DNA from: an uncultured Candidatus Saccharibacteria bacterium
Lineage (GTDB): Bacteria > Patescibacteriota > Minisyncoccia > Minisyncoccales > Minisyncoccaceae
Direction: 5' to 3'
Length of the DNA: 54,283 nucleotides
Assembly (NCBI GenBank): GCA_964586365.1
Contig: CAZPGI010000001.1
Coordinates: 1-54,283, forward strand
Shown here: in pieces, positions 5,590 through 13,138 of the stretch
How positions within the stretch are numbered: the stretch's first letter is position 1
How the letters are laid out: each line of letters begins with the position of its first letter
The notes under the pieces: generated by a model
The model's input: only the letters and a program-made list of their open reading frames with translations
The model's database searches: none
What the model was told of the DNA's origin: nothing
Translations under genes and position numbers: made by a program

Positions 5590-6492
5590 TTACCATAATT
5601 TTAGATTCGCGCCAGAGCTTTCTTCCAAACCAGGGATTTTTTTGACTAAACTTTTAAAACCAAGCTCTTCTAAGATTTGCTTAGCTTGCTGAGGGTCATA
5701 CTTTCCCCACTCATAGTCTTTCAAAGAAACATTTAAAGGGACATCTCTTTTTATCTCAGCCAGCTTTTTACTTAAAAAAGCCATTTCTTGGCCAGCCAAA
5801 AGCTTGGCTCTGGTTTTTTCCTCTATTCTTGGATCATTAATATTTTGATAAAGATTTTCAATTGTTTTAAAATTCTTAATCAATCCCAAAGCCGTCTTTT
5901 CACCGATTCCTTTAACTCCGGGAATATTGTCTGAAGGGTCTCCCCGCAAAGCCTTAAAGTCAATAAGCTCTTTTTCGCTTAATCCTTCATATTTTTTCTT
6001 AACCAAATCTTGATTATACAAAACAGCTTCTTTTACTCCTCTGTTTAAAAAGTAAACATTGGTATGGTCATTTACTAATTGCAAAGTGTCCAAATCGCCA
6101 GAAACAATAATGTTCTTAACTTTTCCTGAAGACAAAGAAGCTAAAGTGCCAATAATATCGTCTCCTTCAAAACCTGGCTTTTCGCAAAAAGGAATATCAA
6201 AAACCTTTAAAACTTCTTTTAGTTTAGGAATTTGGTCATAAAACTCTTGAGGCGGTTTCTTTCTTTTTGCTTTATACTCCTCATAGGCTTGTTTTCTAAA
6301 AGTCGGCTCAGCCAAATCAAAACAAACAGCTAGACAACAAGGATTAAACTCATTAATAACTTTCATTAAAACTAAAAGAAAACCATAAATAGCGTTAACC
6401 AATTCTCCTTTTTTGTTTTTCAATAAAGGCAAAGCATGAAAGGCTCGATGTAAAACTGAATTGGCGTCAATGATAACAAAATTATCAGCCAT
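5590..6492 (-). CDS. Stand-alone 5'-3' exonuclease (Pol I N-terminal/FEN-like domain)
   Basis: IIDANSVLHRAFHALP, GFEGDDIIG and GDPSDNIPGVKGIGEKTA motifs. No polymerase domain follows. Confidence 0.85.
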   Translation of the reverse strand: MADNFVIIDANSVLHRAFHALPLLKNKKGELVNAIYGFLLVLMKVINEFNPCCLAVCFDLAEPTFRKQAYEEYKAKRKKPPQEFYDQIPKLKEVLKVFDIPFCEKPGFEGDDIIGTLASLSSGKVKNIIVSGDLDTLQLVNDHTNVYFLNRGVKEAVLYNQDLVKKKYEGLSEKELIDFKALRGDPSDNIPGVKGIGEKTALGLIKNFKTIENLYQNINDPRIEEKTRAKLLAGQEMAFLSKKLAEIKRDVPLNVSLKDYEWGKYDPQQAKQILEELGFKSLVKKIPGLEESSGANLKLW

Positions 6493-7089: not shown

Positions 7090-7626
7090 ATGCTCAACAA
7101 AACAAAGCTCACCGTTTTATCTGCTTTTTCTTCGCTGGGAATATTTTTTGCTTCTATCGCTCAAGCTGTTTGTCCGGTTTGTACGGTAGGCGTAATTGCT
7201 GGTCTAGGGCTCGCCCGCTGGCTAAAAATAGATGACACCATTACTGGACTATGGCTTGGAGGAGCAACTGTTCTTTTGATTATGTGGACATTTGTTTTCT
7301 TTGATAAAAAGAATATCAAGTTTCCAGGAAGAAATATAATTACCATTATTGTTTATTACGCTCTTGTTTTCTGGCCTCTTCGCTCTTTAGAAATAATTGG
7401 CCACGAACAACACACAATTTGGGGAATGGATAAATTAATATTTTCAATAGTTTTAGGAAGTATTTCTTTGTTTGGATTTGAAAGATGGTATCGTCAGATG
7501 CGGGCCAAAAGAGGGAAATCTCTCTTCCGCTACCAAAAAATTGTTTGGCCAATTTTACCTTTAATTATTTTATCTATTTTCTTTTATTACGTTACTAAAC
7601 ACCAGCTGTTTTGTTGCTATCAATAA
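7090..7626 (+). CDS. Hypothetical polytopic membrane protein with an N-terminal CPVC motif
   Basis: Multiple hydrophobic helices. The ORF is followed by an intrinsic terminator. No family recognised. Confidence 0.5.
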   Translation: MLNKTKLTVLSAFSSLGIFFASIAQAVCPVCTVGVIAGLGLARWLKIDDTITGLWLGGATVLLIMWTFVFFDKKNIKFPGRNIITIIVYYALVFWPLRSLEIIGHEQHTIWGMDKLIFSIVLGSISLFGFERWYRQMRAKRGKSLFRYQKIVWPILPLIILSIFFYYVTKHQLFCCYQ

Positions 7627-7646
7627 CCGTCTCTTGGACGGTTTTT
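7625..7646 (+). terminator. Rho-independent terminator
   Basis: aaccgtc-tcttg-gacggtt (7-bp stem) followed by a T-run, overlapping the stop codon of the 7090-7626 gene. Confidence 0.55.
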
Positions 7647-7702
7647 GCTTATCAATGAATCAATTGACTTTTCCTTTGAAATAAAGTAACTTGAAGGAAA
7701 TT

Positions 7703-8794
7703 ATGGATGATTTTTCTAAGGCAAAAGATATTATAGACAATTCTAAAAACGTTGTCATTGTCAGCAATAAAGAAGATTTTGGACAAGACGCTTTAGGGGC
7801 AGCAACAGGCACCTTTTTTGCTCTTAAAAACAAAAAGAGTGTCTTTGCTCCCAGAGACAAAAACCCTGAAGAACTGGTCGGTTTTTTAAAAGAAACCGCT
7901 GAACGCAAAAAATTCGTAGTCTCTTTTAGCAATGAAGTCTCCGAAGTCTTTTACGAAAAAAGGGGCAATGGCCTTGATCTTTATCTCGTCCCCAAAAACA
8001 TTAATGATGTTGACCTTAAAAACTTTTCTTGCAAAATAGTTTCTGACAAAGAACAAGACCCTCTTTCCTCTCCTCCTGTTTTTGATACTGTTATTGCTTT
8101 TAATATTAATTCCTTTCAAGAATTGGAAAACTACTTTGAAGAAGATATTGGCTCTATTTATCAATGCGCTGTTATTAATATCAGTAATAAACCAGGGAAT
8201 GAAAACTACGGAGAAGTTAATCTCATTGACGAAAAATCTTCTCTTTCTGAAAAAGTGGTTTTACTCTTAGAAACTGCTCAAGCTGAAATCAACGAAAAAG
8301 CAGCCAGTTTTCTTTTGTGGGGAATTGCTTCTTCTCTTAAATCTTTTAAAACTCCTCAAGCCCTGGGAATTATTAAAAAACTGGTGCAAGAAGGAGGCCA
8401 TTTTTATTCCAATCGTCCCGGAGAAGAGTCTAGGAGAAAAATTGCTCTTTTTGAAAAAACCATTAAAAACCTTTGCCTTTGGAAAAAACACAACCTCTAT
8501 TTCTCTGCCCTCTCGGATAATGATATTAAAGACATTGGTTCAACTTCTTCTGATTTAAGCTTTGTGGTGGAAAAAATGAAAAACCTCTTCCTTCTTCCTT
8601 CTTTTGTCTTGTTTTGGGAAAGCAAATCTTCTCCTTTAACAGTTAAAGGCGTTTTTTATTCTGACCAAAAAGAAGTCATTGATAAAATTAAAAATGCTTA
8701 TCAAGGCAATTTTAAAGGCCAAGGCGGAATCTTTATTACTGGAAAACAAGACTTAGGTTCAGCTAAAAAAGAATTAATCAGTTTGTTTAAATAA
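7703..8794 (+). CDS. Hypothetical protein, possibly a degenerate DHH/NrnA-like fold
   Basis: The N-terminus IIDNSKNVVIVSNKEDFGQDALGAATGTFFALK resembles the DHH motif I-II region, but the catalytic H/D residues are replaced. ATG at 7703 with gaagga upstream (the ORF track starts at TTG 7691). Confidence 0.35.
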   Translation: MDDFSKAKDIIDNSKNVVIVSNKEDFGQDALGAATGTFFALKNKKSVFAPRDKNPEELVGFLKETAERKKFVVSFSNEVSEVFYEKRGNGLDLYLVPKNINDVDLKNFSCKIVSDKEQDPLSSPPVFDTVIAFNINSFQELENYFEEDIGSIYQCAVINISNKPGNENYGEVNLIDEKSSLSEKVVLLLETAQAEINEKAASFLLWGIASSLKSFKTPQALGIIKKLVQEGGHFYSNRPGEESRRKIALFEKTIKNLCLWKKHNLYFSALSDNDIKDIGSTSSDLSFVVEKMKNLFLLPSFVLFWESKSSPLTVKGVFYSDQKEVIDKIKNAYQGNFKGQGGIFITGKQDLGSAKKELISLFK

Positions 8795-8797
8795 TTT

Positions 8798-10099
8798 ATG
8801 GAAATAACAGGAAAATTAGAACTAGACTTAGGATTTTTGTTCCAAGCTGACAGAAAGTTTAAAAATATTCCCAGCTATATCCAAGCCATAAACGAAGCTT
8901 CAACCAAAGATACTAGTGAGTTTGTTAAAACCATTATGGCTGGCGCTATTTTCCTTGATGCTTCTGACTTGCATCTAGAAGCAGAAGAGAATGGCGGGGC
9001 ATTAAGGATAAGAATTGATGGCTTGCTTCAAAATGTCTATACTTTCAGCTTTGTTGCTTATCAGTCCTTAATTTCTAGAATAAAGCTTCTTTCTCAAATG
9101 AAATTAAATATTGAAAAAAAACCGCAAGACGGCAGATTTACTGTGATTATAGAAAACAATGAAAAGCCAGAAGAAATAGAAATAAGAGCATCCACTCTTC
9201 CCTCTGAATATGGAGAAACCATTGTAATGAGAATTCTTAATCCTAAGAGTTTAATTGATTTAGAGCAATTGGGGTTAAGAAAAGATCTTTACCAAACTTT
9301 TATTGAACAAGTGCAAAAACCAAATGGAATGATTATTGTTACTGGGCCAACTGGTTCTGGTAAAACTACCACCTTGTATGCTTTTTTAAAAAAGATTAAA
9401 AATCCGGAGATAAAAATAGTAACCATTGAAGACCCTATTGAATATCGACTGGAAGGAATTTCTCAAACTCAAGTTGACCCTAAGCGAGGCTATGATTTTG
9501 CTTCTGGTTTAAGGTCAATCGTCCGTCAAGACCCTGATGTAATCTTAGTGGGAGAAATTAGAGATTTAGAAACAGCCAGCATTGCTCTCCAAGCAGCTCT
9601 AACCGGACATTTAGTTTTCAGTACCCTGCATACTAATGACGCTGCCGGCACAGTTTCCCGTCTTCAGGCTTTAGGAGAAAAACCAGTAAACATTGCTCCT
9701 GCCTTAAACATGATTGTCGCTCAAAGGCTGGTTAGAAAAGTTTGCCCTTATTGCGGCCGACCTCAAACCATTCCTTCGGCCATGTTTAAAGAAATGCAAG
9801 AAGCTTTTAAGAACCTTCCAGCTGGAGCAGATGCCCCAAAACTTGACCCAAAAGCAACAATTCTTTTCTCTAAGGGCTGTAATGCTTGCAATAATACTGG
9901 CTATAAAGGAAGAATAGGCATTTTTGAAGCTTTTGTCGTTGATAATGAAGCTGAAGATTTTATTCTCACCTCTCCGTCTTCTTCAGCTCTCGCCAAGTTT
10001 GCTGTTAGTAAAGGAATGACCACAATGAAACAAGATGGATATATAAAAGTATTAAATAAAATAACGACTATGGAAGAAGTTAAAAAAGCAGTAGGATAA
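8798..10099 (+). CDS. GspE/PilB-family secretion ATPase (type IV pilus / T2SS-type)
   Basis: Walker A GPTGSGKTTT, Asp box DPIEY, Walker B DPDVILVGEIRD, His box TGHLVFSTLHTND, and a tetracysteine cluster CPYC...CNACN. Confidence 0.85.
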   Translation: MEITGKLELDLGFLFQADRKFKNIPSYIQAINEASTKDTSEFVKTIMAGAIFLDASDLHLEAEENGGALRIRIDGLLQNVYTFSFVAYQSLISRIKLLSQMKLNIEKKPQDGRFTVIIENNEKPEEIEIRASTLPSEYGETIVMRILNPKSLIDLEQLGLRKDLYQTFIEQVQKPNGMIIVTGPTGSGKTTTLYAFLKKIKNPEIKIVTIEDPIEYRLEGISQTQVDPKRGYDFASGLRSIVRQDPDVILVGEIRDLETASIALQAALTGHLVFSTLHTNDAAGTVSRLQALGEKPVNIAPALNMIVAQRLVRKVCPYCGRPQTIPSAMFKEMQEAFKNLPAGADAPKLDPKATILFSKGCNACNNTGYKGRIGIFEAFVVDNEAEDFILTSPSSSALAKFAVSKGMTTMKQDGYIKVLNKITTMEEVKKAVG

Positions 10100-10127
10100 A
10101 AAGAAAAGCGCTACCCGCAGATAGCGC
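10097..10127 (-). terminator. Reverse-strand intrinsic terminator of the candidate ncRNA
   Basis: gcgcta/tagcgc hairpin (10108-10113 / 10122-10127). It is followed on the minus strand by ttttcttttt (10107-10097). Confidence 0.45.
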
Positions 10128-10265
10128 AAAAATAATTCCTGAACTGGGGGCATACTTTAGCATTCGGGCTGAAAGTCAAGAATTTTCCTGAGGAATAGCC
10201 CAGTAAAAACCAAACTATCCATTAACTGCAGAAAATTCCCACCCCCAGTTCAAGAATCATTTTCT
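10128..10265 (-). ncRNA. Candidate structured small RNA, family not recognised
   Basis: A 23-position closing helix pairs 10128-10150 with 10242-10264. It has 20 Watson-Crick pairs, and 3 C.A mismatches that become G.U only on the minus strand. Inner helices: 10155-10175; 10180-10187 with 10231-10238; 10192-10198 with 10215-10220. It is bracketed by a minus-strand promoter and terminator. Confidence 0.45.
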
Positions 10266-10271
10266 ATTGCA

Positions 10272-10300
10272 ACAATAACACACTTTTAAAAACTTGTCAA
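10272..10300 (-). promoter_or_regulatory. Sigma70-like promoter for the candidate ncRNA
   Basis: The minus strand reads TTGACA (10300-10295), a 17-nt spacer, then TATTGT (10277-10272). The predicted start is near 10265, where the closing helix begins. Confidence 0.4.
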
Positions 10301-11292
10301 GAGGCATGGACAATGAAGAAATAATTGAATCTACTTTAAGACCCAAAAACTGGGCTGACTATATCGGCCAAGAAAGGATAAAAAAGCATTTAGAGGTAAT
10401 GATTAGAGCGGCCAGAGAAAGAAGAGAAGCGCCTGACCATATCCTTTTTTACGGACCAGCTGGTTTAGGCAAAACAACTCTCGCCTATCTCGTAGCTCAA
10501 GAGGCTGAAGCCAACATTCGCGTCACTTCTGGACCAATAATTGAAAAATCAGGAGACCTTGTCGCTATTTTAACCAATCTTAACGAAGGCGATTTTCTTT
10601 TTATTGACGAATGCCACCGCATTAATCGCTTTGTAGAAGAGTATCTTTATTCTGCCATGGAAGAATTTAAACTCAACCTTATTCTTGGCCGAGGACCAAT
10701 GGCTAAAAGCATTGATTTAAAACTTCCTCATTTTACCTTAATTGGAGCAACAACTAGAGTTGACCTTCTTTCTGCTCCTCTAAGGAGCAGGTTTGGAGCT
10801 GTTCTTCAATTAAACTTTTACAGCCAAGAAGAAATTGAAGAAATAATTAAAGGTTCAGCTAAGACTCTTAATGCGAAAATAGACGATGAAGCAGTTAAAG
10901 AGATTGCCCGTCGCTCTAGATTTACCCCCCGCACAGCCAATAAATTATTAAAAAGAGTAAGAGATTTTGCCCAAGTAGAAGGCAAGAAAATTATTGATAA
11001 AGAACTGACTAATAAAGCTCTAGACTTTCTGGAAATTGACGAGCTAGGATTAGAACCAGGAGATAAAAGAATCCTGGAGACGATTATTAAAAAGTTTGAA
11101 GGCGGACCGGTTGGCTTGCAAGCCCTGGCTGCCTCAATTTCTGAAGAAAAGAATACTATTTTAGAAATTTATGAGCCGTATTTAATCCAACTAGGATTGA
11201 TTAAAAGAACTTCTAAGGGAAGAATTGCTACAGAGTTAGCTTACAAGCATTTAGGAATAAAATGCAAAAACAAGCAAACAAACTTATTCTAA
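10294..11292 (+). CDS. ruvB: Holliday junction DNA helicase RuvB
   Basis: LRPKNWADYIGQE, Walker A GPAGLGKTTLA, Walker B FIDECHR, sensor RFG. The start may be the ATG at 10306 rather than the TTG at 10294. Confidence 0.9.
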   Translation: MSRGMDNEEIIESTLRPKNWADYIGQERIKKHLEVMIRAARERREAPDHILFYGPAGLGKTTLAYLVAQEAEANIRVTSGPIIEKSGDLVAILTNLNEGDFLFIDECHRINRFVEEYLYSAMEEFKLNLILGRGPMAKSIDLKLPHFTLIGATTRVDLLSAPLRSRFGAVLQLNFYSQEEIEEIIKGSAKTLNAKIDDEAVKEIARRSRFTPRTANKLLKRVRDFAQVEGKKIIDKELTNKALDFLEIDELGLEPGDKRILETIIKKFEGGPVGLQALAASISEEKNTILEIYEPYLIQLGLIKRTSKGRIATELAYKHLGIKCKNKQTNLF

Positions 11293-11876
11293 TTGCTTTA
11301 CTGATTTTCCAGCCAGCTCAAGCTGTTTTGATTAATGAAATCTGCTGGACAGGAGACCAAGAATCAAGCAGTAATGAATGGATTGAATTATACAATCCAG
11401 CCAATCAAAATGTTTCTCTTGATGGCTGGAAAATTATTATCTCTGAGAAAAAGATAATCAATCTTAAAGGTTCAATTCCAGCTAATGGTTTTTATCTTTT
11501 AGGGAGGAATAAAAATCAAACAGGGCTAGATTTGCTTCATACTAAAGCTTTAAACAATAAAGGAGAAAATATTAACCTCGCTGACCAAAATAATTATATT
11601 GTTGATTCTGTAGATTGTTCAGAAGGTTGGAGTTATGGTGATAACGACACAAAGAAAACAATGGAAAGGTCTCTTGATTTGAAAACCTGGCAAACTAGTC
11701 TAAACCCAGGAGGAACGCCAAAACAAAGCAACAGTTTAATAGAAAAATCAGTTAAACCAACTGTTGAAGCTAAGCAAATTAATAAGAAGAACAGCTTTAC
11801 TCCTTGGCTTGCTCTTTTCCTTTCTCTTTTTTCTGGCGGGGTTGTTATTTTTACTAAAAAACAGCTTAAATCTTAA
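11262..11876 (+). CDS. Lamin-tail-domain (LTD) protein with signal peptide and C-terminal TM anchor
   Basis: VLINEICWTGD...NEWIELYNPANQNVSLDGWKI is the LTD signature. C-terminal hydrophobic WLALFLSLFSGGVVIF. Confidence 0.7.
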   Translation: MQKQANKLILIALLIFQPAQAVLINEICWTGDQESSSNEWIELYNPANQNVSLDGWKIIISEKKIINLKGSIPANGFYLLGRNKNQTGLDLLHTKALNNKGENINLADQNNYIVDSVDCSEGWSYGDNDTKKTMERSLDLKTWQTSLNPGGTPKQSNSLIEKSVKPTVEAKQINKKNSFTPWLALFLSLFSGGVVIFTKKQLKS

Positions 11877-11918
11877 TTCTGGTTGCAAGTTTTTCTTTTT
11901 TGCAGTATAGTTAGAGCC

Positions 11919-12641
11919 ATGAGCGGACATTCTCATTGGCACTCCATTAAGTTTAAAAAAGGAGTAGCTGATGCTAAAAAAAGTAAAGTATTCTCTAAAT
12001 TAGCTAGAGAAATATCTATCGCGGCTAGAGAAAGCGGCGCTGATTTAACTTTTAATCCTAAATTAAGAACAGTTGTTGACAAGGCCAAAGCAGTTAATAT
12101 GACCTCAGACAGCATTGACCGAGCTATTAAAAAGGGCGCTGGAGAATTGGGGGGAGCCAACTTTGAAGAATTTACTTTTGAAGCTTATGGCCCAGGCAAC
12201 ACTGCTTTAATTGTAGAAGGAATTACTGACAACAAAAACAGGTCTTTGGGGGAATTAAAAATAATCTTAAATCAGAATGGAGGGAAAATGGTAGCTGAGG
12301 GAGCAATCAAATGGATGTTTGAAAAAAAAGGAGTAATTTACATTAATAAAGAGAACCTAAAGGAAAAAGAAGAAACTGAGCTTTTAATCATTGAATCAGG
12401 AGCAGAAAACTTTGAATGGCAAGAAGATGGCTTGATTGTTTATACCAAACCAGAAGATTTAGAAAGAATAAAAAACTTTTTAAGAGACAACAATATAGAG
12501 ATTGATTCAGGCGCCCTGGAATGGGTAGCAAGGGAAACAATAGAACTAAGCGATGAATTAAAAGAAAAGAATCAAAAGCTTTTTGATGCTTTGGACGAAC
12601 ATGATGATGTCCAAAACATCTACACTAATTTCAATTTATGA
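11919..12641 (+). CDS. yebC: YebC/PmpR family DNA-binding regulator
   Basis: MSGHSHWHSIKFKKG is the canonical family N-terminus. ATG at 11919. Confidence 0.9.
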   Translation: MSGHSHWHSIKFKKGVADAKKSKVFSKLAREISIAARESGADLTFNPKLRTVVDKAKAVNMTSDSIDRAIKKGAGELGGANFEEFTFEAYGPGNTALIVEGITDNKNRSLGELKIILNQNGGKMVAEGAIKWMFEKKGVIYINKENLKEKEETELLIIESGAENFEWQEDGLIVYTKPEDLERIKNFLRDNNIEIDSGALEWVARETIELSDELKEKNQKLFDALDEHDDVQNIYTNFNL

Positions 12642-13138
12642 TAATCTTAGGCCTTGACCCTGGAACAGCTACTACTGGATTTGGTATTATCAATTCCAGT
12701 AAAAAACAATTGCTTTGCCTTGAATATGGAGCAATTGAAACTCCAGCTAAAATGGAGATGGGAGAAAGGTTGCAAATGCTGAACAAAGAGCTGAAAAGAA
12801 TTATTAAAAAACATGGGCCAGAGATTGCTGCCATTGAATCCCTTTATTTCTTCAAAAACGCCAAAACCGCTATTCCTGTCAGTCAAGCTAAAGGAGTAGC
12901 GCTTTTTACTTTTTCCTCCCAAAACGTTCCTATTAAAGAGTTTACTCCCCTACAAGCCAAGACAGCAGTCACTGGCTATGGCCGGGCAAGCAAAGAACAG
13001 GTGCAAAAAATGATAAAACAAATTCTTAAGCTTGAAAAAACTCCTAGGCCTGATGATGCTGCTGACGCTTTGGCAATTGCTGTTTGTTGCGCTCAATATC
13101 TAGGCTTTTTTGATTCGGATAAAATTTCTTTTACCTGA
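12638..13138 (+). CDS. ruvC: Crossover junction endodeoxyribonuclease RuvC
   Basis: IILGLDPGTATTGFGII, the catalytic E in AIESLYF, and DAADALAIA. Confidence 0.9.
   Translation: MIILGLDPGTATTGFGIINSSKKQLLCLEYGAIETPAKMEMGERLQMLNKELKRIIKKHGPEIAAIESLYFFKNAKTAIPVSQAKGVALFTFSSQNVPIKEFTPLQAKTAVTGYGRASKEQVQKMIKQILKLEKTPRPDDAADALAIAVCCAQYLGFFDSDKISFT

Follow-up and report, generated by a model that had tools for sequence, protein, structure and literature searches.

The spacer between the gene for a T2SSE (PilB/GspE-type) ATPase and ruvB in an uncultured bacterium of the candidate phyla radiation (CPR) raises the question of what a long inverted repeat is doing between two genes that are read in the same direction. 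The window, by which we mean the whole stretch of 54,283 nucleotides that was analysed (contig CAZPGI010000001.1 of assembly GCA_964586365.1), holds this element at positions 10128-10264. An earlier note, made from the letters of this stretch, had taken it for an independently transcribed, highly structured RNA of ~140 nt from the minus strand, and comparison with related genomes supports such a reading. What we find is an RNA gene that is conserved, single-copy, strand-specific and strongly covarying, its promoter and terminator signals being conserved too; the RNA family is new, as it is absent from Rfam 15 and from the literature searched. As to its role, we favour, with a probability of about 0.5, an abundant RNA that would act in trans by binding protein and whose closing stem would double as its terminator.

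In the fold of the RNA, a 23-bp stem, P1, closes a three-way junction. A script recovered the 23 paired positions between 10128-10150 and 10242-10264, of which 20 are Watson-Crick pairs and three are A.C or C.A oppositions on the plus strand that become G.U pairs on the minus strand only, just as the earlier note had described them. Folding of the minus strand of 10100-10275 gives -75.4 kcal/mol (z -8.1, none of 200 shuffles as stable), and that of the plus strand, made for comparison, -45.9 kcal/mol (z -4.0). G.U pairs make up 12 of the 57 pairs of the minus-strand minimum-free-energy fold; in homologues the first pair of helix P2 is G.U in 88 of 100 sequences, and several other positions are G.U in most of them. 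The covariance model scores the locus at ~150 bits in the forward orientation versus ~40 bits on the reverse strand. We assign the RNA to the minus strand because of these G.U pairs and the difference between the two model scores.

Read on that strand, the transcript is predicted to start at 10264-10265, a position derived from spacing, 7-8 nt downstream of the -10 box. The 5' strand of P1 (10242-10264) forms 23 pairs with 10150-10128, and its 3' strand (10128-10150) runs into a U-run. P1 encloses P2, an A/U-rich helix of 10239-10229 with 10189-10179 whose 5' strand begins with an invariant GG. P2 and P3 make up a long arm, interrupted between the two by an asymmetric internal loop; the 5' side of this loop (10228-10221) frequently contains UAG, and its 3' side (10191-10190) is the UC of a near-invariant CCUC. 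The P3 hairpin pairs 10220-10209 with 10204-10192 around a 4-nt loop (10208-10205) that is UUCG-like in most relatives, and P4, a short hairpin, pairs 10175-10168 with 10161-10155 around a C-rich loop (10167-10162; CCCGAAU here). Three inner helices had been proposed from the single sequence, at 10155-10175, 10180-10187 with 10231-10238, and 10192-10198 with 10215-10220; all are present both in the minimum-free-energy fold and in the comparative structure, as P4, P2 and the base of P3. The mutually exclusive folds that had been proposed alongside them did not survive comparison: the UUCC/GGAA hairpin is possible in this sequence but is not kept in relatives, and the family alignment shows GAAA or AAAA in place of the GGAA partner in one genus (g2).

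Compensatory changes are abundant in homologues, which bears out the covariation that a genuine structured RNA had been expected to show. Thirty-one sequences of the same family gave 42 pairs in RNAalifold, 15 of them with compensatory changes. When 47 sequences from many families were aligned, 96.7% of the cells paired and both sides had changed in 32 of the 42 pairs, while RNAalifold on the same alignment returned 46 pairs, 36 of them compensatory. With 100 sequences from about as many genomes of the order, 94.4% of 4591 cells pair, and compensatory changes occur in 41 of 46 pairs (825 cells). None of 500 shuffles of the 100-sequence alignment reached any of five measures, and moving the 3' partners by 1-3 columns reduced pairing to 44-56%. 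The larger alignments were fitted to the model, a procedure that favours structure; the alignment of the 31 family sequences made with MAFFT only already shows the same helices. Broken down by helix, compensatory pairs number 20 of 21 in P1, 10 of 11 in P2, 8 of 11 in P3 (the other three never vary) and all three modelled in P4. A mutual-information scan over the 134 well-occupied columns of the 100 sequences detected the known helices only, together with a possible 2-bp extension of P1.

The bases kept in at least 45 of the 47 sequences cluster around the junction and the internal loop. They comprise six pairs at the top of P1 (UGGGGG/CCCCCA), the GG at the base of P2, the GG/CC at the base of P3 followed by UC, which forms the CCUC motif, and, towards the tip of P3, a GG and a G-C pair. 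In P1 the outer 15 pairs change freely, with compensation. Other orders have a different conserved top of P1, CUGUAGGCAA/UUGCCUACAG, and an extra hairpin of 5-17 bp between P1 and P2 that turns the junction into a four-way one. The P4 loop reads UUCCUAA, UUCCCAA or similar in other families and orders.

The RNA is a single-copy gene of wide distribution. Our assembly (477 kb in 41 contigs, 95% complete) contains one full-length copy, and all its other matches are of 24 nt or less. By BLASTN, 31 of the family's 36 other genomes each have one match, full-length or to the core, at E 3e-15 or better, and 24 sampled genomes of other families have none; the five family genomes in which BLASTN found nothing are all of one genus (g8), and in two of them the covariance model detects the RNA. 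Model R1, built from the 31 family sequences, has matches in 126 of 151 genomes of the order, nearly always one full-length match each. Model R2, built from the 47 sequences, matches 71 of 151 genomes of the class, which corresponds to 65 of the 145 genomes from outside the order; among 144 genomes of other classes of the phylum it gave one match, a 50-nt hairpin that we regard as spurious. The tallies for order and class are lower bounds, since the orthologous ATPase locus, searched alone in 26 genomes without a hit, yielded the RNA in 8 of them (E 0.001 or better), three of these with 79-87 bits. Two copies were seen by R1 in only three genomes of the order. Genome G142 has a tandem pair in one spacer (C33:8259-8398 and 8415-8554). 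The copies of G057 lie at C5:3201-3338 and 5807-5940, the second 2.6 kb away among unrelated hydrolase and camelysin-like genes. G059 carries its copies on contigs C73 and C8 with an ATPase gene on each, which may be strain heterogeneity.

These data bear on the reading that there is no RNA gene here at all, only a DNA palindrome, a miniature inverted-repeat transposable element (MITE) or a large bidirectional terminator, any of which would suit a long inverted repeat with an A-run and a U-run. A MITE had been named as the outcome to be expected of multiple dispersed copies, and it was rejected, since the genome holds a single full-length copy with no dispersed ones and relatives have one match each apart from the three exceptions above. 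Covariation keeps G.U pairs on one strand only, and the inner domain is conserved together with an oriented promoter. Copy number and strand-specific covariation thus refute the absence of an RNA gene, which we consider next to impossible.

The signals for transcription lie immediately outside the fold. A consensus scan of the minus strand recovered the promoter that had been noticed by eye, TTGACA-17-TATTGT with a TG extension at 10300-10272. Its -35 hexamer TTGACA (10295-10300) is located just upstream of the probable ruvB start codon, ATG 10306, and overlaps the likely ribosome-binding site of that gene; the extended -10 element (10272-10280) consists of TG at 10280-10279 and TATTGT at 10277-10272, with a spacer of 17 nt to the -35 box. 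The scan equally returned the GC hairpin with T-run reported after the RNA. It is a second, canonical intrinsic terminator on the minus strand (10098-10127), formed by an 8-bp GC hairpin (10127-10108) and a U-run (10107-10098) that extends to the stop codon of the ATPase gene. Sites of either kind are not more frequent in the 1.4-kb region than in shuffles (2 versus 2.4 promoter-like, 2 versus 1.4 terminator-like). Promoter and terminator are thus only suggestive on the single sequence, and their weight comes from conservation in relatives.

That conservation is extensive. An exact TTGACA occurs within 75 nt upstream in 96 of 100 order-level homologues, most rows show the 17-nt spacer and a TAnnnT hexamer, usually with the TG extension, and the consensus over the 100 homologues is cTTGACA-aAttttt.atAaT.Tgt-TAtAaT; both boxes are also kept in the family alignment. 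In family f1 the sequence of the terminator hairpin varies among genera, with a GC hairpin and T-run retained. One genus (g9) has no separate terminator hairpin, and its U-run follows directly after P1, as is the rule in other families too; in most of these the P1 stem with its U-run is the only terminator. An A-run at the 5' side of P1 pairs with the 3' U-run in 65-82 of 100 sequences (pairs 4-6).

The genome contains 33 TTGACA-N17-TAnnnT sites, against ~11 expected from base composition, and the same promoter type stands directly upstream of the gene for RNase P RNA (G000:C26:310-338, with the RNase P RNA at C26:348-674). Because of the conservation in 96 of 100 homologues and the use of the same promoter type by RNase P RNA, we infer that the promoter is probably strong and the RNA abundant. 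Three of the 33 sites share identical first 14 bases (window 10300, C15:6045 and C25:3455). The 17-nt spacer of the promoter (window 10278-10294) is itself conserved as an A/T-rich sequence with a CATAAT-like motif in most families, and in family f1 it contains an imperfect palindrome, ACAyTTTAAArTGT. The conserved spacer sequence could serve as an operator or as a second, overlapping promoter element. An operator at the f1 palindrome was rejected, as the palindrome is not kept in other families, which have the CATAAT-like motif in its place.

Does the RNA belong to a known class? The earlier note could not place it among signal recognition particle (SRP) RNA, 5S, 6S, tmRNA or riboswitches, and the comparison with Rfam 15 (4227 families) agrees with it: no family matches the window at gathering score, and nothing relevant was found on 10000-10400 (E up to 10) or on 20 loci from other orders (E up to 0.1). 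Matches on 10000-10400 to MIR4416 (E 0.26), ncS54 and RT-2 were set aside as chance hits to a long hairpin and terminator. We found no paper on this RNA in the small-RNA literature on CPR, Parcubacteria, Patescibacteria and Paceibacteria, a search that did not extend to supplementary motif lists. 5S rRNA, RNase P RNA and tmRNA are each located elsewhere in the genome. A Y RNA of the YrlA type was rejected, as PF05731 (TROVE, Ro60/Rsr) was not found in the genome and there was no Rfam match. A riboswitch or other cis-acting leader is excluded because no gene of the same orientation follows the RNA; on its strand it is succeeded by the terminator, behind which the convergent ATPase gene has its 3' end.

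A divergent SRP (4.5S) RNA would be expected to look much like this one in being single-copy, present throughout the class, closed as a hairpin and of similar size, and Rfam SRP RNA was found in none of 61 relatives. The models for small and large bacterial SRP RNA (RF00169 and RF01854) gave no match in this region or genome and none in the 61 order genomes, and the apical loops are UUCG-like and lack the helix-8 pattern of SRP RNA. The protein partners Ffh and FtsY are missing as well. PF02978 (Ffh M domain), PF00448 (SRP54-type GTPase) and TIGR00959 (ffh) have no match in this genome, and DTAGR, the motif of SRP GTPases, is absent from all six of its reading frames. The search for Ffh was not masked by gaps, because the genome has only 710 N. 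PF02978 reached the cut-off in 0 of 61 relatives and gave no match of any kind in 151 genomes across the phylum, whereas all 14 control genomes match. Nelson & Stegen 2015 (PMC4508563) report both ffh and ffs as undetected in all Parcubacteria genomes. An SRP RNA was therefore rejected, as both the partners and a model match are lacking; its identity as such is already refuted for practical purposes, and we give it practically no credence. The loss of SRP is published for Parcubacteria, and how far it seems to reach across the whole phylum sample may be worth checking.

The likeness to 6S RNA (SsrS, RF00013) is closer. This RNA, too, is apparently abundant and single-copy, has a strong promoter of the sigma-70 consensus type and a long closing stem, and carries a hairpin on the 3' side of the central junction, so one may ask whether it is a second, 6S-like RNA that binds RNA polymerase. 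That RF00013 has no match in the whole genome (E up to 1) speaks for such an identity, and that it has none on 10000-10400 (E up to 10) speaks against it. The structure differs, in that 6S RNA is a rod with an open central bubble and in this RNA three or four helices meet at a junction, whose 5' side, between P1 and P2, measures only 2-6 nt here and is a stable hairpin in other orders. Moreover, relatives possess a separate 6S-like RNA at another place. Among 151 genomes of the class, RF00013 has matches in 5, all away from the present locus and one with more than the gathering score, and these five loci (L147:1501-1671, L148:1101-1252 on the minus strand, L149:1501-1649, L150:1501-1642 and L151:1501-1649) are homologous and rod-shaped, each with its own promoter. 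Model R3, built from them, has one match each in 121 of the 151 order genomes, at loci other than that of the present RNA. At least 96 of the 151 order genomes carry both RNAs (G053, G118, G049 and G128, for example, are in both lists), thus their cells have a separate 6S-like RNA. R3 has no match in this genome or in its genus (0 of 3 genomes), a point in favour of a 6S-like identity here. A 6S candidate at C7:5362-5411, from an nhmmer profile of the five loci (E 0.33), lies inside a coding region and does not fold, and was dropped. On balance we rejected 6S RNA and regard a second RNA of this kind as very unlikely.

What remains is a free-standing structured non-coding RNA gene in the general sense, whose promoter and terminator are conserved in its orientation and whose fold is backed by compensatory changes. 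Orphan classes of structured non-coding RNA that are specific to a lineage are exemplified by the raiA motif RNA and motifs of the Bacteroidales-1 and Flavo-1 type. Our RNA resembles such classes in having its own promoter and terminator, a covarying fold, a single copy, restriction to one lineage and no assigned function, and it differs from them in its occurrence in Paceibacteria (CPR) and in its unusually fixed genomic position.

That position is unusual in its constancy. The RNA is the sole antisense unit in a block of seven plus-strand genes (7090-13138), which begins with an uncharacterised membrane protein of 178 aa and a DHH-like protein of 367 aa (7691-8794), whose gene ends 3 nt before that of the T2SSE ATPase. 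The ATPase gene itself (8798-10099; 433 aa; PF00437, E 9e-118) is convergent with the RNA, and ruvB (10294-11292, probable start ATG 10306) is divergent from the RNA promoter and is followed by a gene for a Lamin-Tail-Domain (LTD) protein (11262-11876) and by yebC and ruvC up to 13138, all on the plus strand. The ATPase gene is adjacent and convergent at 31 of 31 loci of the family, 25 of 26 further loci of the order and 26 of 28 loci of the class, and the only further-order locus that lacks it is cut by a contig end. The genomes have 2-5 T2SSE paralogues each, and the RNA adjoins one particular orthologue. On the promoter side ruvB is adjacent at 30 of 31 family loci (the exception being a contig end), 14 of 26 further order loci and 21 of 28 class loci. 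At 10 loci without ruvB the promoter-side gene is again divergent and close, and it encodes an LTD protein in nine cases and YebC in one, two of the nine LTD neighbours also having a ComEA-type HHH_3 motif. Where ruvB is missing, the promoter-side neighbour is thus the next gene of the same conserved block. Exceptions to the arrangement are the displaced copy in G250, where a TPR gene has come to stand between RNA and ATPase gene, and the second copy in G057; the neighbours of both are unrelated genes.

Such constancy invites a purely cis-acting explanation, in which the antisense unit and its bidirectional stem would insulate the ruvB-LTD-yebC-ruvC genes from read-through of the ATPase operon, or tune it, by termination, by collision of polymerases or by pairing with the read-through mRNA, with no target in trans. 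The near-invariant position across the class is what such an element would show, as are its being the only antisense unit of the block and the way in which its -35 box abuts the ribosome-binding site of ruvB. The consensus scan found no plus-strand promoter-like site for ruvB in the spacer, the replacement of a missing ruvB by the next gene of the block preserves the divergent arrangement, and P1 is flanked by an A-run and a U-run. It also shares with bidirectional intrinsic terminators a long stem with such flanks between two operons. Unlike them, P1 encloses ~90 nt of conserved, covarying structure and the unit has its own conserved strong promoter. An insulator needs neither junction and loop bases that are invariant throughout the class nor the P2-P3-P4 core; the G.U pattern indicates selection on the minus-strand fold only, the second copy of G057 sits in an unrelated context, and the RNA and the ATPase gene are separated in G250. 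We hold an exclusively cis-acting element, the main rival of the reading that we favour, to be unlikely; a trans-acting RNA could also have been co-opted as an insulator, in which case the two explanations are compatible.

The trans-acting, protein-binding RNA that we favour would work as follows. It would be read from the minus strand off the near-consensus sigma-70-type promoter and would end at the P1 stem and U-run, in this family with the second GC terminator behind them. Being abundant, it would then act as a stable folded scaffold or decoy for a protein. Its recognition surface may consist of UGGGG/CCCCA, GG/CU and GG/CCUC, which lie at the top of P1 and at the bases of P2 and P3, respectively; we take the junction and internal loop for this surface because the invariant nucleotides cluster there. 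The outer part of P1, a closing stem of 21-23 bp, would clamp both ends and offer a duplex of a size suitable for RNase III. The pairing of A-run and U-run in 65-82 of 100 sequences suggests that P1 stops transcription from both sides, which would insulate the ATPase operon from the ruvB-LTD-yebC-ruvC operon. Action in trans is favoured by invariant bases that lie in the junction and the loops and not in stems only, and by the additional copies, one in an unrelated context (G057) and one in tandem (G142).

Several points weigh against this proposal. The conserved tail-to-tail position relative to the ATPase gene exceeds what a housekeeping RNA needs, and fits a role in cis at least as well. 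No covariation of tertiary contacts or pseudoknots points to a complex fold for binding a protein or ligand. It is an assumption that the P1 stem terminates transcription, and an unusual one for a stem with ~90 nt inside it. Finally, the three matching sequencing runs (6-7% of sampled words) gave no transcript, no 5' or 3' end and no abundance: what they cover is part of ruvB (10408-10640), besides some short unlike fragments, with nothing over 10098-10305, which has no bearing either way on transcription or habitat.

The neighbouring genes offer a starting point for identifying partners. The block of T2SSE ATPase, LTD/HHH protein, ruvB, yebC and ruvC looks, from the domains encoded, like a cluster for DNA uptake and resolution of Holliday junctions. 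The conserved core of Parcubacteria includes type IV pilus and competence genes (PMC4508563). Together with the genes of the block, this places the RNA in a neighbourhood of DNA uptake and recombination, and because the RNA gene is fixed inside that block, these processes would be the first place to look for its partner or targets. One may go a step further and suppose that Paceibacteria have an apparatus for DNA uptake and recombination of which the RNA is a dedicated component or a regulator. It would form a class-specific ribonucleoprotein governing the way in which these cells, which scavenge nucleotides, import and process foreign DNA. The apparatus would comprise RuvB/RuvC, the ComEA-like LTD/HHH protein and the T2SSE ATPase together with the DHH-like protein as its partner; their genes would have bordered that of the RNA on both sides from a time before the orders of the class separated. 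We regard this more specific version as rather unlikely.

The same surroundings could be read in terms of a base-pairing small RNA. Its C-rich P4 loop (CCC/UCC) and the CCUC motif would pair with Shine-Dalgarno regions of target mRNAs, perhaps those of the neighbouring DNA-uptake and recombination genes. Parallels exist in the C-rich-loop small RNAs of Firmicutes and in RocR, the competence small RNA of Legionella. The P4 loop is C-rich across orders, the CCUC is near-invariant, and the DNA-uptake and recombination context would suit such targets, as would the pilus and competence genes of the conserved Parcubacteria core (PMC4508563). The CC of CCUC is, however, paired in the comparative structure, any C-rich loop fits any Shine-Dalgarno sequence and hence provides no test, and small RNAs of this kind seldom keep both sequence and fold over a whole class. 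A base-pairing role therefore seems quite improbable to us.

A large part of bacterial diversity belongs to the CPR, whose RNA biology has hardly been explored. A whole class of these ultra-small bacteria retains this RNA, tightly folded and with a strong promoter, as one gene in each genome of ~0.5-1 Mb; because it is kept in small genomes that shed even the signal recognition particle, its task is very probably an important one. A covariance model recognises the family easily, its invariant core is well defined, and the conserved gene block is a concrete place from which to search for partners. Rfam would gain a new family by it, and it would improve the annotation of thousands of metagenome-assembled genomes, and as a new RNA class in a poorly known and very large bacterial group it should be of interest to RNA biologists and CPR researchers alike. 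A by-product of the analysis is the model of the divergent 6S-like RNA of the order, which the Rfam 6S model misses almost entirely.

Two minor observations concern the protein genes of the block. Some relatives' orthologues of the LTD protein carry the ComEA-type HHH_3 motif, and LTD loci of relatives lie at L061:714-1475 on the minus strand and at L066:1602-2423 on the plus strand. For the 367-aa protein, this genome's copy has no Pfam DHH match, and the nearest Atlas clusters carry DHH (and DHHA1) on 30-77% of their members; its gene and that of the ATPase are kept as a pair across the order, as seen in C-terminal tblastn matches.

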